Shown: positions 2,675-23,721, counted from the stretch's first letter. The stretch is 35,455 bases of DNA from an uncultured bacterium (GCA_902773015.1 CACYCW010000054.1:1-35455), one strand, 5' to 3'. The notes: generated by a model not told the origin, from the letters alone. Numbers and translations are program-made.

Positions 2675-3915
2675 GGATCCTGCTCCTAGCCGGCGAGGAA
2701 TCGGGTCTCCTGTACGCCGAGCGCATCCGCATCGCAATCCTGGGGATGTGCCCGAGCGCGGAATTCCGCGGTTATGCCGACTACGGGTTTCGAACTGAGG
2801 ATCTGGCAGTGATCGGCATCTTTCCGATACTGCTTCGCCTCTTCTACTTCCTGCGGGTCAAGCGCACGATGGAGCGCGCAATCGATGACTGGCGGCCGGA
2901 TGTCGTCTGCTCGGTCGACTACCCGGGAATGAACCTCAGGCTCACGGCGTACGCGAAGGCGCGCGGCGTCCGTACGGTGCATGTCGTCTGTCCCCAGGTC
3001 TGGGCGTGGAAGAAGGGACGGATACCGAAGATCGAGGCGTCGGTAGACGAGCTGTGCTGCTTCTTTCCGTTCGAGCCTGCGCTGTTCAAGCCGGGTTTCG
3101 CCTCGTTCGTCGGACACCCTCTCGTCGAAGAGATGAGGAAGGAGGCAGGCGAATCGACTGCAGGCGGCAGCGATCGACAGCCGTCGAATGCCTCCGGGGT
3201 CAAGCGGCTGGCGATCCTTCCCGGAAGCCGCATGGGTGAGATCGAGCGGCACCTGCCGATTCTGCTGAGAGTGGTTGCAACGCTTCAGGAGGAGTTCCCC
3301 GATCTTCAGGTCACGATTCCCGCGGCGAGTCCCCGGGCCTACGACAAGATTGTCGCCCTGATGTCGGCGGCCCGGGCCGGTGATCGACGGCTCGCAACGG
3401 CTCGCGACGGCAATAGGCCAGACGACCCTGCGGTCGCCCTCGTTCGCGGTCATGCGCGCGATGCGTTGCGCACCGCCGACGCGGCGGTCGTGGCAAGTGG
3501 AACCGCGACACTCGAGGCGGCTCTCGCGGGATGCCCGACGGTGCTGGTCTATCGCGTGAGCTGGCTCTTTGCGGCAATCCTGAGACGCCTCATCAAGGAC
3601 ATCCGCCATATCGGTCTGGCGAACGTGATTGCCGAGAAGGCCGGCACTCCGTGTCCGATGCCGGAACTTCTGCAGGAGGATTTCACGGATGAGAACGTGC
3701 TCTCGCAGGTTCGGCCCTGGCTGGCGGATTCCGCGGCGAATGCCGCAGCGAGAAGGGCACTGAACGAGACGATGGAGCTTCTGCGCTCCGATGGCGGCGC
3801 GATTGACCGCATCGCCCGTCGTGTTGTTGGGGAGAAAAGCGAACGAGACCCCGAGCCCGCGGGTGTCGCTGGGGCCGACAGGCCATTTTCCGCTGAAAGG
3901 ATGCAGACACGATGA
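2671..3915 (+). CDS. lpxB: Lipid-A-disaccharide synthase
   Basis: N-terminus 'MRILLLAGEESG', 'LPGSRMGEIERHLP', 'ASGTATLEAALAGCPTVLVYR' are typical LpxB (GT19) motifs. Confidence 0.85.
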   Translation: MRILLLAGEESGLLYAERIRIAILGMCPSAEFRGYADYGFRTEDLAVIGIFPILLRLFYFLRVKRTMERAIDDWRPDVVCSVDYPGMNLRLTAYAKARGVRTVHVVCPQVWAWKKGRIPKIEASVDELCCFFPFEPALFKPGFASFVGHPLVEEMRKEAGESTAGGSDRQPSNASGVKRLAILPGSRMGEIERHLPILLRVVATLQEEFPDLQVTIPAASPRAYDKIVALMSAARAGDRRLATARDGNRPDDPAVALVRGHARDALRTADAAVVASGTATLEAALAGCPTVLVYRVSWLFAAILRRLIKDIRHIGLANVIAEKAGTPCPMPELLQEDFTDENVLSQVRPWLADSAANAAARRALNETMELLRSDGGAIDRIARRVVGEKSERDPEPAGVAGADRPFSAERMQTR

Positions 3916-6548
3916 CAGATGAGCAACGTCAGAGAAGGGGGAGCGTCGCGCGGACGCTTCGCTCGATCCGCACACAGTATTCCCTCATGACGGCCTTCTT
4001 CCTGCTGCTTTTGCTGGGCATCTTCTACATCGGCGGGCGCATCGTGCTTGTTCATCTCGTCCGCGAGACCGAGCAGCAGGTGAAGGACGTCGGCCTTGAC
4101 ATCGCGCGACTCGCCTATCGGAATGCCGACCGCATGCGGGACGCGACGGCGGGGCGGGTCGAGCCGTTCGGTCAGCGGCTCGTCGCCGGGCGCGCGGCCG
4201 CCGAGGTGCTCGCCGACGGCAGCGCCCGCGACGTCTCGTTGCTCGTGGGCTACTCGGAAAAGGGCGTGTTTCTCTCTGCCGCGCAGCGCCGCGGCAACGT
4301 GATTGAGCAGCTTGATGTGCAGTCACTTGCACCCTATGCCGATCGCATCTCGGGCTGGATGTCGCACTGGTTGGCCGTGAACGGGTCACGCCCACCTGTC
4401 GGTATCATGCGCCTCCGCGGTGTCACCCATTACATGACGCTCGTCAGGTGCCCCGAGACCGGGATGGGGCTAGTAATCGGAGCGCCGTTCGACATGTCGC
4501 AATTCGCCTCTCAGGTCGGTGAGTCGCACACTGCGTATGACGTGCGGGTGAGGGGAGTGGCAAGTCCGGTCGACGCCTCGGTTCGCCGCGACTCCGCAGC
4601 GTCCGAGACCCCGTTCGGACTCGCCCCCATGCTCTCCGAGGCGCTCAATTTCTATTCGGGCGGATTCTGGAAGGTTGGCACGGAACCGTTCGAGGCCATC
4701 TTCGCGGTGCGGGACATCGCAGGCGGAACGATCTCGACAATTGCCGTCTCGATGCCCCAGGCCTTCGCTCGTGTCACCGGTTCCGCTCTCGGCCGACTGA
4801 CGTTCTTCGTCGCCATGGCGGGCATTTTTCTCATCATTCCGATCTTCTGGCTTCAAGGTCGTCTCTTTCTCAATCCTCTCACGCGCATGACCAAGGAGCT
4901 TCGCTATCTGGCCGAACGTCACGAGGACACAGACTGTCCGCGCATCGAGTGGAGCGGACGCGATGAATTCGCCGTGCTGGCCGAGAGCGTCAATCGGCTT
5001 CTCGAGACGATTGCCGCGCGCACGGTCAGTCTCGGGCAGCTCAAGCTGCGTCAGCGTGCTCTCATCCAGGGCGTCCCGGACGCGCTGGCGGTCTTCGACT
5101 GGCAGGGGCGCCTCGTTTCGCTGACCAAGCAGCCTGAAGGGGTCTTTCCCCTGCCGGGCCTCCGGGTTGACGAGCCGCCGGACGGTTCGGTCTATGGGGC
5201 GGATGGTCTCGCCGCGTTTACCGCCGCGCTCTCGCGAGTCTTCGCCGGCGAAAAAGTCGCCCAGGCGCAACTTTCGCTCGCGGATCCGAAGGAGAAGGCC
5301 AGAAATCGTCATTTCGAGGTGCGGTTGACCAGAATGGATGAACGCTTTGCCCTGGCGATCATCCGTGACGTGACGAATGAGTTCGCCGAGCATGAACTTC
5401 GCCTGGCAGCCGAGCGTCGCGCCCTTGATTTCCTGAAGCGTGAGTCCTTGACTCTTCTTGCCGCCGGCATCGCTCACGACGTCAACAATGTGCTGGCGGT
5501 GATCCTGAGCACGGTCGAGGGTGCTGCGGCATCCGCCGGCGGCAAGGCGGGCGATCCGAGCCTTGCGGCGATTCGCGATGCGGTCAAGCGTGGATCGGCG
5601 ATGACGAAGGAACTGATGACCTTCGCCGGCGAGACCAAGATTGCACTCACTCGCCTCAAGCCGTCGTTCGTCGTCAGGGATGTGCAGATGCTTCTCGAAC
5701 GGGTTGTCGGGAAGAACATCGTCATTTCTTACGAGCTGGCCGATGATGTCCCTGATGTTGATGCCGATCCGAACCAGTTCTGGAAGGTGCTCTTCAACAT
5801 CGTGAAGAACGCGGCCGAGGCAATCGGTTCGCGTCCCGGTCACATCACGATCGCGACGGCGCGTTGCGAGATGTCGGCGGATCTGGCGGCGTCCTTTCGC
5901 TCAGAACACCCGTTGCCCACGGGGCCAGGCACTGTCATTCGCATCACCGACGACGGCCCGGGTGTATCGGTGGACGTGTTGCCGCGTCTTTTCGATCCAT
6001 ACGTGTCGTCGAAATCCCTTGGACGCGGACTTGGGCTCGCGACGGTGCGCACGATCGTCGAGGCGCATGGCGGCGGCATTCGGGTGGCAAGTGAGGTGGA
6101 TCGCGGGACGACTTTCCACATCTTCCTTCCGGCGTCGAGCCTGGAGGCACCCCCCTCGTTGCCGGCCACTTCGGAGGATGGCGTGAAGGAGCCGCTGCCG
6201 ACGGACGTCCTGATCGTGGACAATGACGAGGCGATCCTGAAGACGTGCTCGATTCTGCTGAAGGCGCTGAAGGTCACGCCGCATGTCGCGCGCGACCGTC
6301 ATGAGGCCCTGTCGTTCATTCGCCGTCAGGCCGATCGCGTCGGGGTGATTCTGATGGATGCGCACCTCGGGGAAATCGACACGGTGAGACTCCTGGCGAG
6401 TTTCCGCCTGATTGCGCCGCAGGCGAAGATCGTCCTGTCGTCGGGATCGCGGGAGGAAGACCTGAAGGTGGCCTTCGCAGCCCATCCCTATGATGCATTC
6501 CTCGCCAAGCCCTACACGATTGCTGAACTCAAGGCCACGCTGGGCTGA
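3912..6548 (+). CDS. Hybrid sensor histidine kinase (2 TM + periplasmic sensor, HAMP, PAS-like, HisKA, HATPase, C-terminal receiver)
   Basis: H-box 'AGIAHDVNNVLAVI', N-box 'NIVKNAAEA', G-boxes 'DDGPGV' and 'GRGLGLATV'. Receiver 'VLIVDNDEAIL...ILMDAHL...AKPYT'. Start overlaps the lpxB stop (ATGA). Confidence 0.9.
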   Translation: MTDEQRQRRGSVARTLRSIRTQYSLMTAFFLLLLLGIFYIGGRIVLVHLVRETEQQVKDVGLDIARLAYRNADRMRDATAGRVEPFGQRLVAGRAAAEVLADGSARDVSLLVGYSEKGVFLSAAQRRGNVIEQLDVQSLAPYADRISGWMSHWLAVNGSRPPVGIMRLRGVTHYMTLVRCPETGMGLVIGAPFDMSQFASQVGESHTAYDVRVRGVASPVDASVRRDSAASETPFGLAPMLSEALNFYSGGFWKVGTEPFEAIFAVRDIAGGTISTIAVSMPQAFARVTGSALGRLTFFVAMAGIFLIIPIFWLQGRLFLNPLTRMTKELRYLAERHEDTDCPRIEWSGRDEFAVLAESVNRLLETIAARTVSLGQLKLRQRALIQGVPDALAVFDWQGRLVSLTKQPEGVFPLPGLRVDEPPDGSVYGADGLAAFTAALSRVFAGEKVAQAQLSLADPKEKARNRHFEVRLTRMDERFALAIIRDVTNEFAEHELRLAAERRALDFLKRESLTLLAAGIAHDVNNVLAVILSTVEGAAASAGGKAGDPSLAAIRDAVKRGSAMTKELMTFAGETKIALTRLKPSFVVRDVQMLLERVVGKNIVISYELADDVPDVDADPNQFWKVLFNIVKNAAEAIGSRPGHITIATARCEMSADLAASFRSEHPLPTGPGTVIRITDDGPGVSVDVLPRLFDPYVSSKSLGRGLGLATVRTIVEAHGGGIRVASEVDRGTTFHIFLPASSLEAPPSLPATSEDGVKEPLPTDVLIVDNDEAILKTCSILLKALKVTPHVARDRHEALSFIRRQADRVGVILMDAHLGEIDTVRLLASFRLIAPQAKIVLSSGSREEDLKVAFAAHPYDAFLAKPYTIAELKATLG

Positions 6549-6549
6549 C

Positions 6550-8064
6550 TTACTTGGCGAGCGGTCTCTTTGCGGAGCTCTTCAGATACGGTAGGATGGT
6601 ATCGGCGCAGAGCCGATAACCGTCCGCATCGGGATGCGTGCCGTCCGGAAGCAGATTGATGTCGGGCAGACCCTCCGCATCGGTGAACTTCGCCACGAGA
6701 TCGATGAGGACGACCTTTTCGCCATCGGCCAGCGGGCGGATCAGCTCGTTGATCTTCAGGATCTTCGGCATGATCTCGTCGACGTTCCGGTTCGTTCGGC
6801 GACAATCCCGTTCGCCGCGCCCGTGCGCGACATCACGTGGGAGAATCGAGAAGAGCAACACCTTCGCCTGGGGCTGCTTCCTTCGAACCGCAGCCAGGCA
6901 GGCCCTGATGCCGTTGGCGATGTCCTCGGGCGCGTCCTCCAACACGTTGTTCGTGCCGATCATGATCGTGACAAGGCGAGTGTGGACGCAATCAAGGAAA
7001 CCGCCGTACTCGATGTTCCAGAGGAGATTTTGCGTCTTATCGCCGCCGAACCCGAGGTTGAGGATCCTGTAGCCGTCGAATTTCTCCTTGCGGACGTCAT
7101 TGAACTTCGTCCGTTCGAGGAAGTGGGTGATGGAGTCGCCGAGCCATATGGCATCGTAGTAGTGTTCACTGTTCGCGCAGACCTCTGCGCGCTTGTTGCG
7201 GAGGCGAGGCTCGACTTTCTGCTTGATGTTAGCGAGCCAGTACATCTTCACGTCCGGAAGGGTGGTGCGCGGACCGCTCTTCGGGAGAGCGGTTGGCGCG
7301 GGAGGCGCCGGAGGCTCTGGACGTCTCTTCGTGCGGCCCAGCGCGAAGTCGAGGTAGGGCTTAAGCGACTCGGCCCAGATGGCGTAGCCGGCGGCGCCGG
7401 GATGCAGAAGGTCCTTGGCCATTGACTTCTCGAGGACTCCGTCTGCGGTGAGAAAGCGTGAATTGAAGTCGCACCACAGGGTTCGTTTGCCGTCCGCAAA
7501 CTTGCAGATCACGGAATTGACGACGTCATTGCGCACGCGATTCGGGTCGTTCGTTGTCGCACCGCGCGGAAAGATCGGGTGGAGTACAATTTTCGACTCG
7601 GGATGGTCGCGCGTGAGCCGCCCGAGAACCGACTGGATACCGAGAATCGTGTCGAGCGGCGATTCCTCCACGATGTCATGGTGACCGGTGTTGTTCGTGC
7701 CGATCATGAGGACGAAGATCTTGGGAGAATGGCCGGCGAGCTGATTGTGGTCGAGCCGCCAGAGGATGTGCTCGGTGCGGTCGCCTGAGATGCCGCAGTT
7801 GAGGGCACGGTAGGGTCCTGATGAGAAGTTTGCCTTCCAGACCTCCTTGCCGGCGCTTTCCCAGCCGTGGGTGATCGAGTCGCCAAGGAAGACGATGTCG
7901 TATCGTCCCGTCGCGGCAAGTTCGCGCTTTGCGTCGAAGCGCGGCAGCCACATATTGTGCGTCCAGGGCTTGTCGGGTACGGCTGGCTCGACAGACGGCT
8001 GTCCGAACGAGGTTTCGGCGGCAAGTGCCGCCAACAGCAGAAATCCAATCGACTTTGCGTTCAT
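6550..8064 (-). CDS. Secreted tandem SGNH/GDSL hydrolase (two PAF-acetylhydrolase-like esterase domains)
   Basis: N-terminal signal peptide 'MNAKSIGFLLLAALAAETSFG'. Two GDS blocks ('FLGDSITHGW', 'WLGDSITHF'), each followed by 'G(I/F)(S/G)GD' and 'GTNN', separated by a Pro-rich linker. SD GGAGAAG upstream. Confidence 0.85.
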   Translation of the reverse strand: MNAKSIGFLLLAALAAETSFGQPSVEPAVPDKPWTHNMWLPRFDAKRELAATGRYDIVFLGDSITHGWESAGKEVWKANFSSGPYRALNCGISGDRTEHILWRLDHNQLAGHSPKIFVLMIGTNNTGHHDIVEESPLDTILGIQSVLGRLTRDHPESKIVLHPIFPRGATTNDPNRVRNDVVNSVICKFADGKRTLWCDFNSRFLTADGVLEKSMAKDLLHPGAAGYAIWAESLKPYLDFALGRTKRRPEPPAPPAPTALPKSGPRTTLPDVKMYWLANIKQKVEPRLRNKRAEVCANSEHYYDAIWLGDSITHFLERTKFNDVRKEKFDGYRILNLGFGGDKTQNLLWNIEYGGFLDCVHTRLVTIMIGTNNVLEDAPEDIANGIRACLAAVRRKQPQAKVLLFSILPRDVAHGRGERDCRRTNRNVDEIMPKILKINELIRPLADGEKVVLIDLVAKFTDAEGLPDINLLPDGTHPDADGYRLCADTILPYLKSSAKRPLAK

Positions 8065-8102
8065 CTCATCTTCTCCAGAGTTGGGGTTGACAGATGGATG
8101 GG

Positions 8103-8132
8103 ATTATATCACAAAATCCGACTGAATATCAA
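8103..8132 (-). promoter_or_regulatory. Sigma70-type promoter for the SGNH gene: -35 TTGATA, 18-bp spacer, extended -10 TGATATAAT
   Basis: Reverse complement of 8103-8111 is TGATATAAT, and of 8127-8132 is TTGATA. About 32 nt upstream of the ATG (8064). Confidence 0.6.
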
Positions 8133-8292
8133 ATCAACCGATTCGATGACCGCGACCTTCTCCTTCGCGCGGCTTTCAAGGGTGTTTCATCGTGTCGCTG
8201 TTGCTGTTCCCGCCATCACCAACCTTTTTGATCCACAGTGTCTGTACGGATACTGCTGCACGAATGGATAAGCTCGGGCACTTTTGCAGCCG

Positions 8293-8583
8293 TCAGTTTG
8301 CCTTATCGATTTTCGCGACGAGGTCATTCACCCAAGATATCGCCTCGTCAACAGTGGGCAGAACACCAAGACTTTCCTTTGCCGCAACATAGAGATCATC
8401 CCATCCTTCACCCTTGACAATGAGCGGCGGCCAAGTTTGCTTTTGCCTGTAAGCAAAGAGGCTGCGGCAAGTCGAAAGCGTCTTTGCCTAGTCGATTTTG
8501 GCGTTGTTTATGACAATCTGAAGATCGACGAAATCACGAGCGCGATTCGTGTTGGGAGTGCTGTTACACCATCCGAGGAGGAC
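8293..8583 (-). pseudogene. Possible gene remnant: minus-strand reading frame interrupted by an in-frame TAG (8488-8490)
   Basis: Hand translation gives '...VLLGWCNSTPNTNRARDFVDLQIVINNAKID*AKTLSTCRSLFAYRQKQTWPPLIVKGEGWDDLYVAAKESLGVLPTVDEAISWVNDLVAKIDKAN*'. The second half looks protein-like. No start codon or family recognised. Confidence 0.25.
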
Positions 8584-8589
8584 GACACA

Positions 8590-8763
8590 GTGAATGATAG
8601 CAAAATCGCCGCGAAACTGCGAGCGAACCTGAAGAAATTCTTGGGGGAACTCTCTCCCCATTTTTCCAAGCCGAAACTGGCGTTTCTCGGAGACATGATC
8701 TATGGATTACTGGCAGGAGTCGACGTGAAGCTTTCCGAAAGTTGCTCAAATATTCTCATCTGA
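8590..8763 (+). pseudogene. Possible N-terminal remnant of an IS4/IS701-like transposase (no catalytic domain present)
   Basis: 'LRANLKKFLGELSPHFSKPKLAFLGDMIYGLLAGVDVKLSE' resembles the N-terminal region of IS4/IS701-type transposases. The frame ends after about 55 aa and no DDE domain follows. Lies in the AT-richer island. Confidence 0.3.
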
Positions 8764-9262
8764 AGAACATGGCGGCCATAGTCCTGACCACAGCTCACTT
8801 CTCCATGACGTGGATCGGAAACTCGGACAAACGCGCAATCCTGGCCAAAAGCATTGCCGATGCCTCGCTGAGAATTCACAAACTGCCGGAATTCCATTTC
8901 TATGCAATTGCCGATGGAATCAGAATGCTGCTCTCCAGATGCGGACGGTGGAATGGAATCAACGATGATGACATAACCCCGGAGCATGATCTCTTCCGAT
9001 TCTTCGGCTGCGAATGCGACTGACTCGTACCGTTGTGTTCAGAGCCATAAAAACGCACATCGTCAAAATCACCCCAAATTTTCCTAAAAGTGGTTTTCCA
9101 CTTATCGCAACGTCAAAAAACGCATTCCACCCTTTGTTTATAGGGGTCCGCGCGATTTTGGCCGAAAAAATTGGGGAACCTCGAGGACGCGCATCATTGA
9201 CCGTCTCATAGCCGGGTTGTGTAAAGCCTAGCATATTCTTGCCGGAAAACATAGCACTAATC

Positions 9263-9292
9263 TTGTTTCGCGGCCATCGTCTGTGCTATAAT
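9263..9292 (+). promoter_or_regulatory. Promoter of the DoxX/ETF cluster: -35 TTGTTT, 18-bp spacer, extended -10 TGCTATAAT
   Basis: TGCTATAAT at 9284-9292, 31 nt upstream of the ATG at 9323. Same extended -10 type as the other promoters in the window. Confidence 0.55.
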
Positions 9293-9322
9293 ACGACCAG
9301 CAGGAAGGGAAAGGATTCTGAC

Positions 9323-10780
9323 ATGAGTGACATGGAAGGACGCAGGACAGGTGCAGGCGGTACGCTCCTGGCCGTGGTGCGCATTGCCATCGGCTGGCAC
9401 TTCCTCTACGAGGGGTTGTGGAAGCTCATGCAGGAGAAGGGCTGGAGCTGCGCTTCCTACCTGGATGCGGCGCAGGGCCCGCTGGCGGGGCTCTTCAAGT
9501 GGATGTCCTCGCAGGGGTGGCTCGTCGCGATCGGCGATTACGCGGTGATGATCGGCCTGACGCTCATCGGCATCTCGCTCATCACGGGTGTCCTTGCGCG
9601 CGTGGCGTCGATCTTCGGCATCGCGTTGATGGCGATGTTCTACTGCTGCCAGCCGCCGGAACCGTTTGCAGAGGCGTTCTCAGGTGCGGACGGTCGGTTC
9701 TTCATCCTTGAGCGCAATGCGATCGAGTCCATCGGGCTTCTGCTGATCGCGGTGACGCCGTGCTGGCGCGGCTTCGTGCGGACCCTCCTGCCTGGCATCC
9801 TCGTGCTCGTCGTGTTCGGCGGCGCTTTCTGGCATCAGTGCCGCATCGGTGCGTTCAAGCACGTCGAGGCCGTCACCTCGGCAACCGTCAAGGTGCACAA
9901 GTTCGTCGCGCTCGATGCGCTCAAGAAGCCGTTCACCGACCGGACGACGGTCGGCGGCGTGGAGATCTCGCGTCTCGCCCTCGGCGGCGATCTGATCTCA
10001 GGTCGCTCCCATGCCCGCGATCTCATCTGGACGGACGAGTTCATGCGTCGCTACAATTCGGGTGCCACACTCGAGAGAACCATCCACTACTGCCTCAAGT
10101 GCGGCATCGATACGGTCTTCGCCGAGGCCAACCTTCGCTCCTCCCTGTTCGAGCAGGCGAGGAAGTCCGGCGGTCGGCTCAAGTTCTTCGCGAACTGCGC
10201 CAGCGCCCAGGAGGCGCGCGCGGCGGCGGACGGTGGTGCGCGGAGCGTCTACCTGCGTCCTGAGCTTGCCGACGAACTGGCGAAGAAGGGCGATGCGGAA
10301 GGACTCAAGGCAATCTTCGCCGCGTTCAAGGCGACGGCACTCTCGGTCGGTGTTGGTGCCGAGGACGTGGCGACCGTGAAGTTCTGCGTGGCGAACGGGG
10401 TCGTACCTGACTACTGGGTGCTGGCCTATCATTCGCTCAATTACGCGGCCGCGACGATGAAGCCGCGCTGCAACAACATCTGGTGCGAGGACCCTGTGGC
10501 GGCTGCGGCCTACATGAAGACGCGCAAGGAGCCGTGGGTGGCGATACGCGTGCTCGCGGGCGGGGCGCTCCAGCCTGTTGACGCCTATCACTTCGCGAGG
10601 GACGGTGGTGCGTCGGCAGTGGCCATCGACCTCCTCGACTATCGCATCGTCGAGACGGTGAACGACGCGACGCTGACGCGCGATGAATATCAGAAGAAGA
10701 AGGCGCCGAAAGGCAAGACACCGCCGGGGCCGTCCTCGCCTGCCGCCAAGGGAGCAAAGGGGAAGGAGAAGACGAAGTGA
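9323..10780 (+). CDS. Fusion protein: N-terminal DoxX-family membrane domain (about 5 TM) plus a ~270-aa uncharacterised domain (AKR/TIM-barrel-like?) plus a Lys-rich tail
   Basis: 'RIAIGWHFLYEGLWKL' DoxX-type first helix and further hydrophobic helices. The C-domain is clearly paralogous to the 11253-12272 product (e.g. 'TVKFCVANGVVPDYW' vs 'TVKFCVEHDCIPDFW'; 'EPWVAIRVLAGG' vs 'EPWIAFKVLGAG'). ATG at 9323 chosen over the 9239 alternative start because of the promoter position. Confidence 0.7.
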   Translation: MSDMEGRRTGAGGTLLAVVRIAIGWHFLYEGLWKLMQEKGWSCASYLDAAQGPLAGLFKWMSSQGWLVAIGDYAVMIGLTLIGISLITGVLARVASIFGIALMAMFYCCQPPEPFAEAFSGADGRFFILERNAIESIGLLLIAVTPCWRGFVRTLLPGILVLVVFGGAFWHQCRIGAFKHVEAVTSATVKVHKFVALDALKKPFTDRTTVGGVEISRLALGGDLISGRSHARDLIWTDEFMRRYNSGATLERTIHYCLKCGIDTVFAEANLRSSLFEQARKSGGRLKFFANCASAQEARAAADGGARSVYLRPELADELAKKGDAEGLKAIFAAFKATALSVGVGAEDVATVKFCVANGVVPDYWVLAYHSLNYAAATMKPRCNNIWCEDPVAAAAYMKTRKEPWVAIRVLAGGALQPVDAYHFARDGGASAVAIDLLDYRIVETVNDATLTRDEYQKKKAPKGKTPPGPSSPAAKGAKGKEKTK

Positions 10781-11256
10781 AGATTGCGATTGCGAAATGG
10801 CATCGGCAGGCGTTCGGCGCGGCCGAGAGGGCCTGGGATCCGGTCTGGACGTTGCTGCGTTTCGCGCTCGGCTGGCATCTCGCCTATCTCGGCGTGTGGG
10901 CGCTGACATCCGTGTGGGACTACTCCTGGGTGGGCTGCTTCCGCTGCGCCCACTGGATATTCGGGGATTTCCTGCGGGCGGTCGGGAATTCCGGGGCGAT
11001 GGACGTCGTCGACCTATGCCTGGCGTGGGGGCTGCTGATCGCGGGCATCCTGCTGATGCTCGGTCGGGGCGCACGCATCGGCGCGGTGTTCGGCATCATC
11101 TACCTGCTGCTCATCTACGTGCTCAATCCACCTCACTTCGGGCATACGGGCGAGAGCCATTTCATGTATATCGACCGCAACTTGATCGAGGTGCTGATGC
11201 TGCTTCTCGTGCTGTTTGACAGGCGGAAGGTATGCAAGAAGGAGGTGGAGTCATGA
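10777..11256 (+). CDS. Stand-alone DoxX-family membrane protein (4 TM)
   Basis: 'LLRFALGWHLAYLGVWAL' plus three more hydrophobic helices. GTG start overlaps the upstream stop (GTGA at 10777-10780). Confidence 0.6.
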   Translation: MKIAIAKWHRQAFGAAERAWDPVWTLLRFALGWHLAYLGVWALTSVWDYSWVGCFRCAHWIFGDFLRAVGNSGAMDVVDLCLAWGLLIAGILLMLGRGARIGAVFGIIYLLLIYVLNPPHFGHTGESHFMYIDRNLIEVLMLLLVLFDRRKVCKKEVES

Positions 11257-12272
11257 GCAAGGAGGGAAACCTCAGCCGTCGGGAGCTCATTCTGGGCGGG
11301 GCGTCGCTGGCGGCGCTGGGCGGTGCGGCGGCCTACACCCGCGTGATGCGGAAGAAGGATGTCGTGCGCGCGACCGGCCCGGCGATTTCCGCGTTCCTGC
11401 CGGAGCGCGATCTCGCCGGCCTCGGGCATCCGATCAACCAGTATGCGAAGATCGGCAACGTCACGCTCTCGCGTCTCATCCTCGGCGGCAACATGATCGG
11501 CGGGTGGGCGCATTGCCGCGACATGCGGTTCTACGATCGACTCGTCAAGGCCTACTTCGCCGACGAGAGGATATTTCGCAACTTTCGCATCGCCGAGGAA
11601 TGCGGCGTGAACACCATCCTTACCAATCCGGCGCTGATGCGCGTCATAAACCGCTACTGGCGCGAGGAGGGCGGCAAGATCCAGTTCATCTCCGACTGCG
11701 GCTACCCAGGCGGTGTCATCGCGGGGGCGCGGGTGAGCGTGGAGAACGGCGCCTCGATCGTGTACGCCCATGGTGGCCACTCCGACTCCAATGCGGCGAA
11801 GGGGAACTGGAAGTTCTTCCGCGAATACCTCGATGAGTCGCGCAAGCTGGGCGTTCCCGTGGGCATCGGCTGTCACGCGCTCAAGACGGTGAAGTTCTGC
11901 GTGGAGCACGACTGCATCCCGGACTTCTGGATGAAGACCGTGCATCGCGTCGACTATCCCACGGCGCATCTCGGCGAGGACATCGGCAAGACTTCCGCTG
12001 TCGGCATCGGCGTGTGCGACAACCGGTTCGTGGACACCGATCGACAGGAGGTGTTTGACTACATGGCCACGCGGCCGGAGCCGTGGATCGCCTTCAAGGT
12101 CCTGGGCGCGGGCATCGAGCACCCCAAGGGCGCCTTCCCCGTCTCGTATGACGGCGGGGCAGACTTCATCTGTTGCGGCATGTACGACTACCAGGTCGTT
12201 GATGACGTCAACATCACCAACGAGTACTTCGCGAAAGGACTCCCGAAGCGCCGCCGCGAGTGGCACGGGTAA
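11253..12272 (+). CDS. Tat-signal periplasmic protein, paralog of the C-terminal domain of the 9323-10780 fusion (family not recognised; AKR/TIM-barrel-like pattern)
   Basis: SD AAGGAGGTGGAG, ATG at 11253 overlapping the DoxX stop (ATGA). Twin-arginine 'SRRELILGGASLAALGGAAAY'. 'LSRLILGGNMIGGWAHCRD' and 'ECGVNTILTN' parallel 'ISRLALGGDLISGRSHARD' and 'KCGIDTVFAE' in the fusion. Confidence 0.7.
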   Translation: MSKEGNLSRRELILGGASLAALGGAAAYTRVMRKKDVVRATGPAISAFLPERDLAGLGHPINQYAKIGNVTLSRLILGGNMIGGWAHCRDMRFYDRLVKAYFADERIFRNFRIAEECGVNTILTNPALMRVINRYWREEGGKIQFISDCGYPGGVIAGARVSVENGASIVYAHGGHSDSNAAKGNWKFFREYLDESRKLGVPVGIGCHALKTVKFCVEHDCIPDFWMKTVHRVDYPTAHLGEDIGKTSAVGIGVCDNRFVDTDRQEVFDYMATRPEPWIAFKVLGAGIEHPKGAFPVSYDGGADFICCGMYDYQVVDDVNITNEYFAKGLPKRRREWHG

Positions 12273-12280
12273 GACTGGCC

Positions 12281-13066
12281 ATGACAGTCGTCGTCTGCAT
12301 CAAGCAAGTGCCGGACTCGACGAACGTCCGCATCGACCCGAGGACCAACACCCTCATGCGCGAGGGCGTCGAGTCGATCCTGAATCCATTCGACGCATTC
12401 GCGCTCGAGCAGGGGCTCGCGCTGAAGGACGCGCTCGGCGTGCGCCTCGTGGCGGTTTCGATGGGTCCGCCGCAGGCGGCCGCCGTCCTGCGCGAGGCGC
12501 TTGCCTGCGGTGCTGATGAGGCCTTTCTCGTTTCGTCTCGCGCCTTTGGCGGCGCGGACACGCTCGCGACGAGCTACACGCTTTCGCGGGCGATTCGCAC
12601 CGCCTGCGGCGGGCGCCCCGACCTCGTTCTCTTCGGCAAGCAGGCGATTGACGGCGATACGGCCCAGGTGGGGCCCGGCGTGAGCGAGTTCCTCGACCTG
12701 CCGCTCGTCACCTACGTGAAGGCGCTTTCCGTCACCCCGGACGCCGCCTTTCGCGTGACGACGTCGATGGACGACGGCGAGCACGTGATCGAGGGACGGC
12801 TGCCCGCCGTGATGACGGTTACCAAGGACGCCGCGCCCCCGCGCTTCGCCCCGCTCGCTGGCGCGATGCGCGCGGCAAAGGCGAAGATCACGGTTTTGGA
12901 CGAGAAGGCGATCGCGGCGGATCCCATTCGCATCGGCCTCACCGGCTCCCCGACCAAGGTGGTGACGATCTTCCCGCCGCCGGTGAAGGGCGGAGGTCGC
13001 AAGATCGAGTGGAGGGGTGATGCCGCCGCGCTCGCGCATGAGATTCGGGAGGCGATTCATGGCTGA
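12281..13066 (+). CDS. etfB: Electron transfer flavoprotein, beta subunit
   Basis: 'MTVVVCIKQVPDSTNVRIDPRTNTLMREGV...ILNPFDAFALE' is the canonical EtfB/FixA N-terminus. ATG at 12281 preferred over the upstream GTG. Confidence 0.9.
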   Translation: MTVVVCIKQVPDSTNVRIDPRTNTLMREGVESILNPFDAFALEQGLALKDALGVRLVAVSMGPPQAAAVLREALACGADEAFLVSSRAFGGADTLATSYTLSRAIRTACGGRPDLVLFGKQAIDGDTAQVGPGVSEFLDLPLVTYVKALSVTPDAAFRVTTSMDDGEHVIEGRLPAVMTVTKDAAPPRFAPLAGAMRAAKAKITVLDEKAIAADPIRIGLTGSPTKVVTIFPPPVKGGGRKIEWRGDAAALAHEIREAIHG

Positions 13067-14312
13067 TGCGCCGATTCTCATCGAACGGGCGAAGTGCACG
13101 GGCTGCGGCAAGTGCGTGAATGGCTGTGGCTTCGCTGCGCTTCGGCTTGTCGACGCGCCTGGGGCGAATCGCCTCGGCCGGCTCGCTGAGGTCGACCCGA
13201 GCGCCTGCAAGGCCTGCTCGGCCTGCGTGAAGGCGTGTCCGTTCCATGCGATCGCCGAGACGAAGACCGAGATCCGCGGCACCGAGGGGCTTGAGAGCTA
13301 TCATGACATCTGGGTGTTTTCCGAGCAGACTGCGGGGCGCATTGCCGAGGTCGCCTTCGAGCTGCTTGGCAAGGGACTCGCGCTCAAGGCTCAGCGGGGT
13401 GATGGCTGCCGTCTCTGCGCGGTGCTGCTGGGGAGCGGCGTCACCGCCGCGATGACCGATCCGCTTGTCGCCGCCGGGGCTGATGTCGTCTATGTCGTCG
13501 ACAGTCCCGCACTCGCCGACTATGATGCCGACGTCTACGTCGATGCAGTGGCGAAGCTCGTCGAGCGCCACCACCCCGAGGTGGTCCTTGCCGGTGCGAC
13601 GGCCATCGGCCGTGCGTTCTTCGCCAAGGTGGCGGTGCGCGTGCGCACCGGGCTCACGGCGGACTGCACGGCGCTGCGCATCGAGGAGACGCACAACAAG
13701 GATACCGGTGCGATGCAGATGCTCCTCCACCAGACGCGACCCGCGTTCGGCGGCAACATCATGGCGACCATCATGACGCCGAACCACCGTCCCCAGATGG
13801 CGACCGTGCGTCCGAAGGTCTTCAAGAGGAGGAACGGTTCGGAGAAGGGGCCGGGAGCGAAAGGGGAGGTCCTGCGCGAGGCGCTGGAGCTGATTGCGCC
13901 GCGCACTCGGCTTGTCGAGACCGTGCGTGACCCGGACGCGGTTGACATCGCCGCGGCCGCGGTGCTGGTCGCAGGCGGTCGCGGGCTGAAGGGCGCGGCG
14001 GCGTTCGGCCTTCTTCGCGAGTTGGCGGATCTTCTCGGCGGTGAGGTCGCGGCCTCTCGTGCGGCAGTGGACGCAGGCTGGGCGCCGCAGAGCCGCCAGG
14101 TCGGCCAGACCGGGCGCGCCGTCGTGCCGAAGCTCTACCTCGCCTTCGGCATCTCCGGCGCCATCCAGCATCTCGAGGGCATCCGCGGCGCCGACCGCGT
14201 CATTGCCGTCAACACCGACCCCAATGCGCCGATCTTCGGTGTCGCCGACCTCGGCATCGTCGGGGATGCGACCGAGATCATCCCCGCACTCATCAAGGAG
14301 ATCCGGAAATGA
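13059..14312 (+). CDS. etfA: Electron transfer flavoprotein, alpha subunit, with N-terminal 2x[4Fe-4S] ferredoxin domain
   Basis: Two CxxCxxCxxxCP-type motifs ('CTGCGKCVNGCGF', 'CKACSACVKACPF'), then an EtfA body and C-terminal FAD motif 'LYLAFGISGAIQHLEGI'. ATG overlaps the etfB stop (ATGGCTGA). Confidence 0.85.
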   Translation: MADAPILIERAKCTGCGKCVNGCGFAALRLVDAPGANRLGRLAEVDPSACKACSACVKACPFHAIAETKTEIRGTEGLESYHDIWVFSEQTAGRIAEVAFELLGKGLALKAQRGDGCRLCAVLLGSGVTAAMTDPLVAAGADVVYVVDSPALADYDADVYVDAVAKLVERHHPEVVLAGATAIGRAFFAKVAVRVRTGLTADCTALRIEETHNKDTGAMQMLLHQTRPAFGGNIMATIMTPNHRPQMATVRPKVFKRRNGSEKGPGAKGEVLREALELIAPRTRLVETVRDPDAVDIAAAAVLVAGGRGLKGAAAFGLLRELADLLGGEVAASRAAVDAGWAPQSRQVGQTGRAVVPKLYLAFGISGAIQHLEGIRGADRVIAVNTDPNAPIFGVADLGIVGDATEIIPALIKEIRK

Positions 14313-15910
14313 TCGAGACGGACGTTCTGATCGTGGGCGCGGGCCCGGCCGGTCTCGCCACTGCCATTTCGCTCAAGCGGTGCGGCTTTGCCGGTCGTGT
14401 CGTCGTCATCGACAAGGGATGCGCCGTCGGTAGTCACGTCCTCTCCGGCGCGGTCATGGATCCCGCTGGCTTCCGCGAACTGCTGACGGAGGAGGAGATC
14501 GCGAAGCTGCCCGTCGAGGCGCACGTCAATCGCGAGAGTTTCCGGTTCATCTTCGGCGCCAAGGCCTCGATGCCCATCCCGTGGGTGCCGCCGATGATGC
14601 AGGCGCACGGCTTTCCCGTCGGCTCGCTCACCAAGGTGGCTCGCTACCTCGCCTCGATCGCCGAGCGTCTCGGGGCGGAGGTCTACACCGGTTATGCGGT
14701 GACCGAGCTGATTGAGCGGGACGGCGTCGTCGTCGGGGCGCGCACGGGCGAGAAGGGGCTCGCGGCGGACGGACGACCCAAGTCGAACCATCTCGCGAGC
14801 GAGGAGATTGCCGCGAAGGTGACCGTGCTCGCCGAAGGCGGCGCAGGCGTTCTCACGGATCGTCTCGTGGAGGCGAAGGGCCTTGCCGGGAGACGTCCGC
14901 AGAGCTACGCGATTGCCGTCAAGGAGCTGATCGAACTGGCCGAGCCGGTCGCTGGCTCTGGCGGCACGATCATGCACACCTTCGGCTATCCGGTGAATCT
15001 GTGGACGTATGGCGGCGGTTTCGTCTATCACGTGAGCGACAGCCGCGTGATGGTCGGCTACGCGCTCGGACTCGACTACATAGACGCGACGCTCGATGTG
15101 CATGAGATCTTTCGTCGATACAAGGCGACGGGCGCGGTCGGGCGGCACATCAGCGGCGGCAAGGCCGTCGCCTATGGCGCGAAGGTGATTCCGGAAGGCG
15201 GTTTCTACGCGATGCCGCGTCCGCACGCTCTCGGCGCGCTGATCGTCGGCGACGGGGCGGGGCTGCTCGACGGGCTGCGCATCAAGGGCATCCACATCGC
15301 GATCGAGAGCGGCATCGCGGCGGCGGCGGCGATCGCCGAGACATCCGCCGACGCTGCGGCGGTCGGTGAACGTTATCACGCTCTTCTACGTGCGACGCGC
15401 GGCTATGCCGAGGTGAGACGCGTGAAGAACGTGCATGGCGGCTTCACCCGCGGCGCGCCGTTCGGCGTGGCGATGGCGGGTCTCGCCTGGGCGACCTTCG
15501 GGCGGTTTCCCTTCTGGATGTTCGGCCGTCGTCATCGTGACAGCGAGACGATGCGCGAGCTGCGGCCTGGTGCGCTCGAAGCGGCGGCCCGGTGCGCGGC
15601 GGATCCGGCCATCAGGGCCTTCCCCGATCGGCTGACCGACGTCTTCATGAGCGGCACGCTGCATGAGGAGGACCAGCCGTGCCATCTGCATCTCGTGGAT
15701 CCGGCTCGATGCGAGGCGTGCGAACGCCGCTTCGGGAGCCCCTGCACGCGCTTCTGCCCGGCGGAGGTCTATCGCCGCGACGAGGGCCGGCTGCGCATCG
15801 ACTTCTCGAACTGCCTTCACTGCAAGACCTGCCGCATCAAGTGTCCGCTCGAGAACGTCGAGTGGCGCTTCCCGCAGGGCGGTGACGGTCCGCGCTACAC
15901 GATGATGTGA
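14309..15910 (+). CDS. Electron transfer flavoprotein:quinone oxidoreductase (ETF-QO / FixC-FixX-like, fused 4Fe-4S domain)
   Basis: 'DVLIVGAGPAGLATA' FAD fold. C-terminal 'CPAEVY...CLHCKTCRIKCP...PQGGDGPRY' is typical of ETF-QO. ATGA overlap with etfA. Confidence 0.85.
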   Translation: MIETDVLIVGAGPAGLATAISLKRCGFAGRVVVIDKGCAVGSHVLSGAVMDPAGFRELLTEEEIAKLPVEAHVNRESFRFIFGAKASMPIPWVPPMMQAHGFPVGSLTKVARYLASIAERLGAEVYTGYAVTELIERDGVVVGARTGEKGLAADGRPKSNHLASEEIAAKVTVLAEGGAGVLTDRLVEAKGLAGRRPQSYAIAVKELIELAEPVAGSGGTIMHTFGYPVNLWTYGGGFVYHVSDSRVMVGYALGLDYIDATLDVHEIFRRYKATGAVGRHISGGKAVAYGAKVIPEGGFYAMPRPHALGALIVGDGAGLLDGLRIKGIHIAIESGIAAAAAIAETSADAAAVGERYHALLRATRGYAEVRRVKNVHGGFTRGAPFGVAMAGLAWATFGRFPFWMFGRRHRDSETMRELRPGALEAAARCAADPAIRAFPDRLTDVFMSGTLHEEDQPCHLHLVDPARCEACERRFGSPCTRFCPAEVYRRDEGRLRIDFSNCLHCKTCRIKCPLENVEWRFPQGGDGPRYTMM

Positions 15911-18826: not shown

Positions 18827-19408
18827 ATTATCGTAGGGCTGGGCAATCCGGGGGCGCAGTACGCGAACACGCCTCACTCGGTCGGTTTTGAGACCGTCGA
18901 TGCGATTGCAACTTCGATTGATGTCGCGTGGGAGGAGAAGCGGCAGTTCAAGTGCCTGATGGCGCGTGGCACTTTCGAGGGGCTGCCGGTGATGCTCGTC
19001 AAGCCCCAGACCTTCATGAACCTCTCGGGCGACTCCGTCGCGCCGGTCGTCCGCTACCACAACGCGACCGCTGCGGATCTGCTGGTCATCCAGGACGACA
19101 TCGACCTGCCGGTCGGGCGGTTGCGCATCCGCAAGAGCGGCTCCTGCGGCGGTCACAACGGCATTCGAAGCATCATCGAGCGGCTGGGCACGACTGCGTT
19201 TGCGCGTCTGAAGCTCGGTGTAGGAAAGGACCGCGCGAATGTGGTCGGGCACGTCCTCGGAAAGTTCGATCCCGAGACTCGGCAAACGATGGATCTCGTC
19301 ATCGCCGAGGCGGTGAAGGCCGCCGCGATGATCATGCGGGATGGCCCTGACGCCGCGATGAACGCCTTCAACTCGCTTGACGCCGCGAAGCCGCCCGAGA
19401 CGCGATGA
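18821..19408 (+). CDS. pth: Peptidyl-tRNA hydrolase (TTG start)
   Basis: Canonical N-terminus 'MKIIVGLGNPG..Y..T.H..G', then 'KPQTFMNLSG' and 'GGHNG'. No in-frame ATG would preserve this N-terminus, so TTG at 18821. Confidence 0.9.
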   Translation: MKIIVGLGNPGAQYANTPHSVGFETVDAIATSIDVAWEEKRQFKCLMARGTFEGLPVMLVKPQTFMNLSGDSVAPVVRYHNATAADLLVIQDDIDLPVGRLRIRKSGSCGGHNGIRSIIERLGTTAFARLKLGVGKDRANVVGHVLGKFDPETRQTMDLVIAEAVKAAAMIMRDGPDAAMNAFNSLDAAKPPETR

Positions 19409-20574
19409 GCGAACTGAACGAGACGCCGCGCGGGAGTCGCATTCACATCGCATTCTTTGGATTGAGGAATGCTGGCAAGTCGACGCTCGTCAATGCCTTC
19501 ACCGGACAGCAGGTCGCGATCGTGAGCGATGTCGCTGGAACGACGACCGATCCCGTCTCGAAGGCGATGGAGATCCTGCCGCTCGGTCCCTGCCTCATCA
19601 CCGACACGGCAGGCCTCGATGACACCGGTGCGCTCGGCCTGCAGCGCGTCGAGAAGTCGCTTGCCGTCCTCGCGACGACGGACATCGCCGTCTGGGTCGC
19701 CGCCGAGGCGGATGAAGCGTCCTCCTCGGAGCGTCGGCTCTTCGACGAGACGTGCCGTCGGCGTGGCGTGACCGTGATCGATTTCCGGCGCGGCGATTCC
19801 GTTGACGCGCTCAAGCGCCGGATTGCCGACGTGAAGCTGGTCGATCGTCAGTCTGGACTCCTCGAGGGGCTCGTGAAGAGGAACGATCGAATTCTATGCA
19901 TCGTGCCGATTGACGAGTCGGCGCCGAAGGGGCGGCTCATCCTGCCGCAGCAGCAGGTGATTCGCGAATGTCTCGACATCGGCGCGATCTGCACGGTATG
20001 CCAGCCGTCCGAACTGCTGGCAGCCGATCGATCGCAATCGACGGCGGTCGACGGACGTCGGCTCAAGCCGACCGACTTTGATCTCGCCATCACCGACTCG
20101 CAGGCCTTTCATCAGATCGCCCCTCTGTTCGAGCGGGGGCCCCGTCTCACGTCTTTCTCGATTCTCTTCGCGCGGCAGAAGGGCGATCTCGCTGAGTGCG
20201 TGAAGGGCCTTGAGGCACTTCGTGAGCTCAAGGACGGCGACATGGTGCTCATCGCCGAGGGCTGCACGCATCATCGGCAGTGCAATGACATCGGCACGGT
20301 GAAGATACCCAAGGCGCTCGGAAAGCTCACGGGGCGTGAACTCCGGTTCGTCTTCTCCAGCGGCAACACCTTCGAGATTCCCGCCAATTCGCGGGTTTCC
20401 CTTGTCGTCCACTGCGGAGGCTGCATGCTGACGCGGCGGGAGGTGCTGAGGCGCATCGCCCTTGCCCGGTCGGCGGGCGTGCCGATCGTGAACTACGGGC
20501 TGCTGCTCGCGGCCGCCAGTGGATTGCACATGAGTATCTCTTCCCCGGAGGTGACGGCACAGTCGGGTTCTTGA
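19405..20574 (+). CDS. hydF: [FeFe]-hydrogenase H-cluster maturation GTPase HydF
   Basis: 'RIHIAFFGLRNAGKSTLVNAFTGQQVAIVSDVAGTTTDPV' G-domain. C-terminal cluster motif C-T-H-x46-H-C-G-G-C (counted by hand). ATGA overlap with pth. Confidence 0.85.
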   Translation: MSELNETPRGSRIHIAFFGLRNAGKSTLVNAFTGQQVAIVSDVAGTTTDPVSKAMEILPLGPCLITDTAGLDDTGALGLQRVEKSLAVLATTDIAVWVAAEADEASSSERRLFDETCRRRGVTVIDFRRGDSVDALKRRIADVKLVDRQSGLLEGLVKRNDRILCIVPIDESAPKGRLILPQQQVIRECLDIGAICTVCQPSELLAADRSQSTAVDGRRLKPTDFDLAITDSQAFHQIAPLFERGPRLTSFSILFARQKGDLAECVKGLEALRELKDGDMVLIAEGCTHHRQCNDIGTVKIPKALGKLTGRELRFVFSSGNTFEIPANSRVSLVVHCGGCMLTRREVLRRIALARSAGVPIVNYGLLLAAASGLHMSISSPEVTAQSGS

Positions 20575-20596
20575 TTGGCTTGTGCGCTTGTGCGGA

Positions 20597-20625
20597 TTGC
20601 GCGCGGGGCGGGGATTTGCTATACT
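20597..20625 (+). promoter_or_regulatory. Promoter: -35 TTGCGC, 17-bp spacer, extended -10 TGCTATACT
   Basis: Read directly, 33 nt before the ATG at 20659. Confidence 0.5.
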
Positions 20626-20658
20626 ATACAAGTCAATATCGGGAGATTTTGCCAAGAC

Positions 20659-23720: not shown

Positions 23721-23721
23721 T

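Follow-up and report, generated by a model that had tools for sequence, protein, structure and literature searches.

The window analysed here, a 35,455-nucleotide stretch of DNA from an uncultured bacterium (GCA_902773015.1 CACYCW010000054.1:1-35455), carries three consecutive genes, hereafter g1, g2 and g3, that encode one architecture twice: a DoxX-type membrane part and a soluble domain that is confidently modelled as a TIM barrel. Our analysis demonstrates that this DoxX-barrel architecture is real and recurrent, and no description of it was found, since the literature yielded neither a DoxX-TIM nor a DoxX-Tat (twin-arginine translocation) fusion architecture. The widespread form is one protein of ~500 residues, a DoxX-TIM fusion with an internal twin-arginine motif before helix 5. 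An earlier reading of the same DNA, called here the original prediction, had described fused and split versions of a DoxX module lying side by side, and had taken them for two isoforms of a periplasmic substrate:quinone oxidoreductase. Its anatomy is right; its functional label is best taken as a reasonable guess drawn from the DoxX name.

The three genes are open reading frames (ORFs) on the same strand, and their parts are as follows (pLDDT, predicted local distance difference test score).

9323..10780, + strand: g1, DoxX-TIM fusion of a divergent type without twin-arginine motif, 485 residues (ORF, Pfam DoxX, AlphaFold2 model)
9773..9844, + strand: helix 5 of g1, residues 151-174, preceded by WRGFVRT and no twin-arginine pair (model)
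9941..10702, + strand: TIM barrel of g1, residues 207-460; the conserved residue set is altered (29% identity to g3)
10703..10777, + strand: C-terminal tail of g1, residues 461-485, Lys/Pro/Gly-rich and disordered in the model (pLDDT, sequence)
10777..11256, + strand: g2, stand-alone four-helix DoxX, 159 residues, the putative Sec-inserted half of a split fusion (homology to g1)
11253..12272, + strand: g3, TIM barrel with Tat signal, 339 residues, keeping all family-invariant residues (AlphaFold2, alignment)
11253..11354, + strand: Tat signal/anchor of g3, residues 1-34; helix 5 is its homologue in fused relatives (alignment with the RRELL-helix 5 region)
11442..12227, + strand: barrel core of g3, residues 64-325 (modelled secondary structure)

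Both the ORF listing of the window and the raw sequence agree with the three genes as first read, including their chaining by GTGA and ATGA overlaps. The g1/g2 junction reads AAG-GTGA-AG and the g2/g3 junction TC-ATGA-GC, and a purine-rich Shine-Dalgarno-like stretch lies 5' of both overlap start codons, those of g2 and g3. Residues 197-463 of g1 align with residues 54-332 of g3 at 29% identity (E = 2e-43), and residues 18-142 of g1 with residues 26-145 of g2, also at 29% identity (E = 5e-14). As judged from these alignments, the paralogy of g1 with g3 and g2 far exceeds chance, which upholds the view of g1 as the fused and g2 plus g3 as the split version of one architecture, with g3 a paralogue of the soluble domain of g1. 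Nor is the layout an assembly artefact, because the split three-gene arrangement is conserved in independent metagenome-assembled genomes (loci L005-L007, L013-L015, L017-L019 and L038). Named homologues put the organism in the Kiritimatiellae, and the genomes that hold its nearest relatives are of rumen, goat and horse gut origin.

The membrane part of g1 matches Pfam DoxX (PF07681) over residues 16-105 with 26.6 bits, against a gathering cut-off of 23.6. The score of g2 is just under that cut-off (19.5 bits, E = 1.6e-3), and g2 was assigned to DoxX because it is homologous to g1 and to DoxX-positive relatives; it is 66% identical to the equivalent 160-residue gene of L005. The AlphaFold2 model of g1 (mean pLDDT 85.6) contains long helices at residues 11-35, 65-88, 92-109, 131-144 and 151-174. 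The first four fit the four-helix core of DoxX and the last is an additional fifth helix, so that the model reproduces the DoxX domain of about five transmembrane helices, followed by a soluble domain, that had been read from the sequence. Foldseek, run on the whole g1 model, returned nothing but generic TIM barrels, and no solved structure matched the DoxX part.

The model of g3, computed on an 84-sequence alignment, has a pLDDT of 89.5 and a predicted TM-score (pTM) of 0.83, and shows a (beta/alpha)8 barrel after an N-terminal beta hairpin, the strands of which (64-67 and 70-73) come before strand 1. In g1, the model gives a beta/alpha barrel at residues 207-460, followed by the disordered tail. 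The domain has no sequence match in Pfam, NCBIfam or the PDB, profiles included: the PDB profile searches gave short IMPDH-like motif matches at best (E = 0.003-0.02), none of them significant, and a Pfam scan of the 84 aligned members at E up to 1 found DoxX in 67 and otherwise scattered noise. Longer members of the family contain no informative additional domains. Searching the PDB with the g3 model by Foldseek returned generic barrels only, at TM-scores of about 0.4-0.5, with an aldo-keto reductase (AKR) as the best match (plant L-galactose dehydrogenase 7smi, E = 5.8e-6, TM-score 0.48) and DERA aldolases, indole-glycerol-phosphate synthase and IMP dehydrogenase after the AKRs. The AKRs also lead in the viral structure library, with weak matches that add little else. 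The description of the domain as a TIM barrel, AKR-like and of no nameable family, is therefore fair at the level of the fold.

Membership in the AKR family itself (PF00248) was rejected, as Pfam Aldo_ket_red had no match in the 84 members at E up to 1. The two share the (beta/alpha)8 barrel with its N-terminal beta hairpin, and the opening motifs LSRLILGGN and CGVNT are loosely similar; unlike the AKRs, however, the present barrel is predicted to be periplasmic and exported by Tat. Free NAD(P)H is absent from the periplasm. Read by motif position, the AKR catalytic Asp and Lys sites on strands 2 and 3 would be occupied by Thr/Asn and Asp/Gln. H173, after strand 4, is near-invariant in alignments of g3-type relatives, is replaced by Arg in g1 and is unconserved in unfused relatives. 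An iron-sulfur cluster or a fixed set of disulfides in the barrel was likewise rejected on the variable cysteine patterns of diverse representatives: among these, fused and unfused, the commonest pattern is C216 and C307 only, and nine members have none of the five cysteines (C117, C149, C216, C260 and C307, g3 numbering) that are 94-98% conserved in the closest fused group.

A profile search covering 1.84 billion representative proteins returned 1,246 clusters (50% identity) with an E-value limit of 1e-3; with a limit of 1e-10 the number is 726. The members take two forms, one fused to DoxX (about 500-540 residues) and one free of it (about 330 residues). Nearly all unfused members begin with a Tat motif, e.g. 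NRRSFLK or SRRQFLK, and nearly all fused members have an internal xRRELLxxLxxLPxLG immediately ahead of the last helix. When the search was seeded with unfused members, it gave 7,755 clusters (90% identity), mostly from Planctomycetota; the named unfused relatives carry only the labels 'hypothetical protein' or 'twin-arginine translocation signal domain-containing protein'. For g3, 1,343 relatives were found, and a scan of one genome per species yielded 579. We called ORFs in the best 80 of these 579 relatives' loci and scored them with the window proteins; since the sample is biased to g3 relatives, the counts show recurrence, not frequency. A single ORF with DoxX, the twin-arginine motif, helix 5 and the barrel occurs in 64 of the 80 loci, an interrupted fused unit in two, a tandem arrangement as in the window in eight, and unfused barrels only in six. 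At 74 of these 80 closest species-level loci DoxX thus accompanies the barrel. About ten phylum-level groups are represented, and the recurrence that the original prediction left to a synteny survey is evident. The hosts of fused loci are Kiritimatiellia, Lentisphaerae, Bacteroidales, Acidobacteriota, Gemmatimonadales, Calditrichia, KSB1, Planctomycetota, Latescibacterota and Hydrogenedentota.

The N-terminus of g3 reads MSKEGNL-SRRELIL, then LGGASLAALGGAAAY, a Gly/Ala/Ser-rich hydrophobic region, and then the basic TRVMRKK; the twin arginines are residues 9-10 (nucleotides 11277-11282). All the elements of the proposed Tat signal, i.e. motif, hydrophobic region and following basic residues, are therefore present. 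The twin-arginine motif is kept in 96% of 69 fused and 93% of 44 unfused relatives, and Pfam TAT_signal gives a weak match in four members of the alignment (best E = 0.032) and one at E = 1.3e-4 in P0331. In 65 fusions, helix 4 and the twin arginines are a median of 33 residues apart (minimum 8), with a median of 8 Lys/Arg in between. The 15 residues after helix 5 contain a mean of 4.0 Lys/Arg. The basic loop that bears the Tat motif must be cytoplasmic, and therefore the barrel would be periplasmic. Given the conservation of the motif and the charge of this loop, the predicted placing of the barrel in the periplasm, as first proposed, is well supported. On the three points where the original prediction had seen a risk of failure, namely a soluble domain of a known non-redox family, a lack of recurrent DoxX association and a cytoplasmic location of the domain, none of the results went against it.

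Proteins inserted jointly by Sec and Tat have been described by Tooke et al. (2017, PMC5449189), i.e. the actinobacterial Rieske protein, the haem-molybdenum protein Sco3746, a polyferredoxin and a YkuE-type metallophosphoesterase. In the DoxX-TIM sequences, as in these proteins, an even number of helices is followed by a loop of at least 8 residues and, immediately ahead of the final helix, a consensus twin-arginine motif; basic residues come after this helix, and a globular domain is predicted on the outer face. These sequences differ from the proteins of PMC5449189, where DoxX is mentioned nowhere, in having a DoxX membrane part and a TIM barrel without known cofactor, and the window unit, unlike those proteins, is split exactly between the Sec and Tat parts. 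Helix 5 has a median sum of +3.4 on a crude Hessa scale; this is positive, the sign that the joint Sec/Tat model requires, but two of the other helices (1 and 3) score higher. From its motif, loop and charges, the DoxX-TIM fusion looks like one that Sec and Tat insert together. No cofactor motif was recognised in the outer domain; the conserved His/Asp/Lys set would be consistent with a cofactor there.

Two further observations concern the export route. At locus L002, tatA and tatC (13372-14612) lie about 4 kb 3' of a DoxX-TIM fusion on the same strand. In addition, many unfused Tat barrels (e.g. P0259, P0263, P0266, P0273 and P0288; alignment columns about 33-45) carry a conserved 'LSLEE[K/Q/R]xLLA' after the hydrophobic part of the signal, and the Tat barrel at 10703-11710 of L011 is a further example. 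We know of no sorting or docking motif that resembles it.

The comparison with fused relatives shows that g2 and g3 are derived, by recent fission, from a single ancestral gene. The g3 protein is 70-73% identical to fusions of ~500 residues (P0045 and others). Within the clade that shares the tandem arrangement, the g3-type unit is a single ORF of ~500 residues in L004 and L016, and the other loci have a DoxX gene of 145-160 residues together with a Tat-barrel gene of about 335-345 residues. The remoter clade members, like every outgroup, have the fused form, and the split is therefore a recent fission, neither a failed fusion nor a sequencing error. The break point falls between helix 4 and the twin-arginine motif and coincides with the boundary between the Sec-inserted and Tat-handled parts in the model of Tooke et al. 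(PMC5449189). On the crude scale, the hydrophobic region of g3 is less hydrophobic (5.4, with 5.0-5.7 among the split genes) than that of 69 fused relatives (median 3.0). Judged by this score, the former helix 5 in the split genes now resembles an ordinary Tat signal peptide.

The first gene, g1, is of a different type. In an alignment of 69 standard fusions, 55 unfused members and 30 g1-type sequences (g3 numbering), about 24 positions are invariant or near-invariant in both the fused and unfused groups, and g3 keeps all of them: N80, H87, R89, D90, Y101, E115, Y171, D178, H208, D224, K228, T229, H231, Y235, D256, N257, W278, K282, D304, D312, Q314 and R333-x-R335-x-W337. For H208 and K282, conservation reaches 100% in the two groups; for K228 it is 100% among the fused and 96% among the unfused sequences. 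The two lysines are located on strands 6 (K228) and 7 (K282) of the model. The invariant positions map to the C-terminal strand ends and the loops that follow them, where the active sites of TIM barrels lie; H87, R89, D90, E115, D178, H208, K228, H231, K282, D304 and D312 are at the strand ends in the g3 model. The g1-type sequences have fixed replacements, N80D, E115L, N125E, H208E (100%), K228L, T229A, D256N, K282R (100%), D304A/T, G309D (100%) and Q314R. In place of the conserved C-terminal RxRPW/RxRxW of the family, g1 has the Lys/Pro/Gly-rich tail KKKAPKGKTPPGPSSPAAKGAKGKEKTK (residues 461-485), with pLDDT below 50 over residues 469-485. A twin-arginine pair precedes helix 5 in 5% of 19 g1-type sequences, compared with 96% of the 69 standard fusions. 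The possibility that g1 has a more hydrophobic, hence Sec-competent, helix 5 was considered but found no support (Mann-Whitney p = 0.16).

The g1 type occurs together with the g3 type. Its 410 relatives are all of Kiritimatiellae type, with 58-75% identity over the 113 closest and about 51% in three more distant ones. In 14 of 14 loci with a g1-type gene, a g3-type gene lies directly downstream, and the g3 type is found without the g1 type in about 64 loci. Loci with the tandem order all belong to a single Kiritimatiellae clade, which comprises the window, L004-L007, L013-L019 and L038. The 'two isoforms' of the original prediction are contradicted by a g1 barrel with clade-wide fixed replacements at about 11 invariant positions and no twin-arginine motif; they should give way to the reading of a split ancestral unit accompanied by a degenerate partner. 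Pairs of unfused paralogues, one with and one without a signal, were seen at two other loci. In L008, a 330-residue protein with Tat signal (7001-7993) is followed by a 290-residue paralogue without signal peptide (7997-8869), and in L091 a 324-residue protein with Tat signal (3341-4315) is followed by a 282-residue paralogue without one (4343-5191). The sequences of these pairs suggest export of a heterodimer on one signal ('hitch-hiking').

The surroundings of the three genes in the window were also analysed. Co-directional genes for an electron transfer flavoprotein (ETF) and an ETF:quinone oxidoreductase (ETF-QO) lie directly downstream of g3; the earlier reading had missed them and was incomplete in this respect.

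12260..13066, + strand: EtfB, with a probable true start at ATG 12281, nine bases after the g3 stop (Pfam ETF 3.6e-42)
13017..14312, + strand: EtfA with an N-terminal ferredoxin domain, two [4Fe-4S] clusters (Pfam ETF, ETF_alpha, Fer4)
14309..15910, + strand: ETF-QO, FixC plus FixX-like (Pfam Fer4_ETF_QO 5e-29, ETFQO_UQ-bd 4.8e-21; NCBIfam FixC, FixX)
8065..9322, no strand: upstream gap of 1.26 kb, presumed promoter region (G+C content 0.50 vs about 0.63 nearby)

The order of the ETF/ETF-QO genes is shared with L004 and L016, co-directional and with gaps of 14-18 bases. NCBIfam relates the window ETF to the ETF subunits of clostridial acryloyl-CoA reductase, and from the sequences EtfB, the ferredoxin-EtfA and the FixC-FixX-type ETF-QO could be an electron-bifurcating EtfABCX-type system of an anaerobe. 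As a conserved partner of the barrel, ETF was rejected: it is absent from L005, L013, L014, L018, L038 and all outgroups. The ETF link is thus real but lineage-specific. Upstream, L004 has an AraC regulator, a major facilitator superfamily (MFS) transporter and a cytoplasmic Gfo/Idh/MocA dehydrogenase, and L016 has Gfo/Idh/MocA. The gap at 8065-9322 occupies the place of these AraC, MFS and Gfo/Idh/MocA genes; its ORFs have no Pfam match and Rfam found no riboswitch or other RNA in it. It may be the remnant of a rearrangement or of a mobile element.

A universal conserved neighbour was also sought, and none was found. The commonest family, Gfo/Idh/MocA, occurs within 6 kb in 11 of 88 loci (the window and 87 fetched loci, antisense shadow ORFs removed). 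It is directly adjacent in L004 and L062, where it has no Tat signal, and a shorter Gfo/Idh/MocA-like gene lies directly 5' of the fusion in L068. The other tight neighbours are heterogeneous and mostly related to carbohydrates, among them the glycoside hydrolases GH127, GH123 and GH29, a CE15 glucuronyl esterase, a SASA esterase, a LacI regulator with an SSF symporter, an AKR, Gfo/Idh/MocA, sulfatases and sugar transporters. Of the loci seen, L062 (Prolixibacteraceae) is the most redox-like setting, as a NapC/NirT-type multihaem cytochrome c (8376-9449), the DoxX-TIM fusion (9497-10993) and Gfo/Idh/MocA (11041-12264) follow each other with 48-base gaps. A Kiritimatiellia/Lentisphaerae subclade has a leucine-rich-repeat lipoprotein of ~290 residues 3' of the fusion, with a KamA-like radical SAM gene nearby in most cases (L002, L020, L021, L023, L024, L026-L028, L030, L031, L039, L044 and L052); this association is confined to one clade.

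As a whole, the observations are best explained, in our view, by a two-part, membrane-anchored and quinone-coupled enzyme module on the periplasmic face, made up of g1, g2 and g3 as one complex. We propose this tentatively, giving it slightly less than an even chance. The g3 barrel would be folded before it leaves the cytoplasm, probably enclosing a metal or organic cofactor, and Tat would export it; the DoxX helices would be inserted by Sec, and g1, g2 and g3 would assemble as one complex. In this complex, g3 would hold both the catalytic site and the export signal, and g1 would be a specialised or non-catalytic partner. A heteromer of g1 and g3 is suggested because the g1 type always lies upstream of the g3 type, because it has lost invariant residues, and because pairs with one signal-bearing and one signal-less member occur elsewhere. 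Electrons would be exchanged between the DoxX-bound membrane quinone pool and a small periplasmic substrate, probably carbohydrate-derived, and in the window genome the complex would share its quinone pool with the co-transcribed ETF/ETF-QO.

From the sequences, coupling to quinone is plausible: DoxX has been retained in about ten phylum-level groups, and in some lineages ETF-QO or NapC/NirT genes are found in the neighbourhood. The DoxDA thiosulfate:quinone oxidoreductase and the DoxX family likewise combine a four-helix DoxX membrane domain with an outer-face part, and an arrangement of the DoxDA kind offers a route from a periplasmic substrate to quinone. Unlike DoxDA, however, the present proteins have no DoxA match, DoxD is matched by 2 of the 84 members only (E = 0.26), the partner is predicted to be a Tat-exported TIM barrel, and the neighbours are carbohydrate rather than sulfur genes.

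Several points weigh against a quinone-coupled complex. To our knowledge, a quinone role of DoxX is established only for the archaeal DoxDA enzyme. Little is known of DoxX protein function, and the role of another DoxX homologue was termed unknown in a 2024 paper (PMC11252979). Thousands of relatives are without DoxX; the loci examined from the unfused branch, with its 7,755 clusters, have no detectable DoxX nearby, and for this reason the chemistry of the barrel need not involve DoxX. In the barrel, Pfam, NCBIfam and profile searches found neither a redox cofactor motif nor a known redox family. The ETF linkage is seen in 3 of 8 informative clade loci (the window, L004 and L016), and no neighbour family is common to more than 11 of the 88 loci. 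Finally, helices 1 and 3 score higher than helix 5 on the crude scale, and just 21 of 65 fusions have helix 5 as their least hydrophobic helix; the idea of helix 5 as uniquely weakly hydrophobic was dropped, as this scale gives it no support.

The most serious alternative is that the barrel is a non-redox periplasmic enzyme, i.e. a hydrolase, lyase, isomerase or Schiff-base aldolase acting on glycan breakdown products, with DoxX as an anchor or a passage for substrate or product, and with Tat export reflecting a metal centre or rapid folding. We consider this quite possible, with a chance clearly below even. The majority of the family is soluble and lacks DoxX, genes for glycoside hydrolases, carbohydrate esterases, sulfatases and sugar transporters dominate the neighbourhoods, and the conserved His/Asp/Glu-rich set would suit a metal site. 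Furthermore, metallophosphoesterases that have membrane helices and depend on Tat form a family already described (PMC5449189). The best support comes from the invariant lysines of strands 6 and 7 in DFWMKTVH and IAFKVLAAGA, which in a visual comparison resemble DFIKTSTG and GFKPAGG of E. coli DERA, and DERA structures are among the Foldseek matches. The barrel thus shares with the DERA/DeoC class I aldolases (PF01791) invariant lysines on strands 6 and 7 and, as judged by eye, similar local motifs. Homology to DERA itself was rejected, although we keep it as a lead: the profile comparison with E. coli DERA by hhalign gave a probability of 6.9% and did not reach the lysine strands, and there was no match to Pfam DeoC. 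Nor did the hydrolase, lyase and aldolase models of Pfam match. A four-helix DoxX conserved over about ten phylum-level groups would be unneeded for a mere anchor, and in some lineages the neighbouring ETF-QO and NapC/NirT genes speak for quinone chemistry. The Tat-exported sugar enzymes of Planctomycetes-Verrucomicrobia-Chlamydiae (PVC) and Bacteroidota bacteria, such as Gfo/Idh/MocA and xylose-isomerase-like barrels, share organisms, export route and genomic settings with the present barrel; unlike them, it has no AP_endonuc_2 or Gfo/Idh/MocA match in Pfam, and the fusion to DoxX is specific to it.

It is also conceivable that g1 on the one hand and g2 plus g3 on the other are independent, parallel isoenzymes with different substrates rather than one complex, which we regard as unlikely. 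A DoxX part and a barrel are present in both copies, and conservation of the g1 type is high, its fixed alternative residues without decay fitting a new specificity. However, isoenzymes would not readily account for the constant presence of a g3-type gene directly downstream of the g1 type (14 of 14 loci), when g3 occurs alone in about 64 loci, nor for the loss from g1 of the twin-arginine motif and of the strictly invariant H208, K282 and K228; the signal-bearing and signal-less pairs of L008 and L091 also suggest heteromers. DoxX-clan proteins have repeatedly been tied to sulfur or thiol oxidation. That the module performs sulfur or thiol redox chemistry like DoxDA, the mycobacterial DoxX-SseA complex (a case cited in PMC11252979) or MauE is very improbable. 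The five cysteines at 94-98% in the closest fused group and the weak MauE and DoxD Pfam matches in a few members speak for it; against it are a cysteine pattern that varies among diverse representatives, Pfam scans of the genes and their neighbours that show no DoxA, no rhodanese and no thioredoxin-like domain, and neighbours that are carbohydrate rather than sulfur genes.

The quinone-coupled complex therefore remains our preferred reading. In its widest form, the proposal would make the DoxX-TIM proteins an unreported Sec/Tat family and their barrel a new and widespread class of periplasmic enzyme, in some cases quinone-coupled and in glycan-degrading hosts (Kiritimatiellia, Lentisphaerae, Bacteroidales, Planctomycetota, Acidobacteriota and others), with the window showing both a Sec/Tat split and a catalytic/non-catalytic pair in which only one partner has the Tat motif; we think it rather doubtful that all of this holds together. 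In any case, the barrel family is abundant, with at least 1,246 clusters at 50% identity over about ten phylum-level groups, and nearly always targeted to Tat, and neither a Pfam or NCBIfam model, nor a solved structure, nor literature was found for it. If the internal twin-arginine motif works as in the Rieske protein and Sco3746, the DoxX-TIM proteins would add a large and phylogenetically broad family to the few proteins known to require both Sec and Tat, and the fission into g2 and g3 would be a natural test of the modular Sec/Tat assembly model. A quinone-linked periplasmic enzyme beside ETF-QO would bear on the handling of reducing equivalents in gut Kiritimatiellae, glycan degraders that are supposed to be fermentative. 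The poorly understood DoxX family, for its part, would gain a testable partner.

Elsewhere in the window, two ORFs without Pfam match (21622-23289, 555 residues, and 25312-27183, 623 residues) lie on either side of a gene with a prepilin-type N-terminal methylation motif (23545-24579). HydF, an [FeFe] hydrogenase maturase, is encoded at 19405-20574 with no HydE or HydG nearby. The window also contains a TrpD-TrpC fusion gene (30894-32639) and two aldose 1-epimerase genes (427-1818 and 20575-21564).

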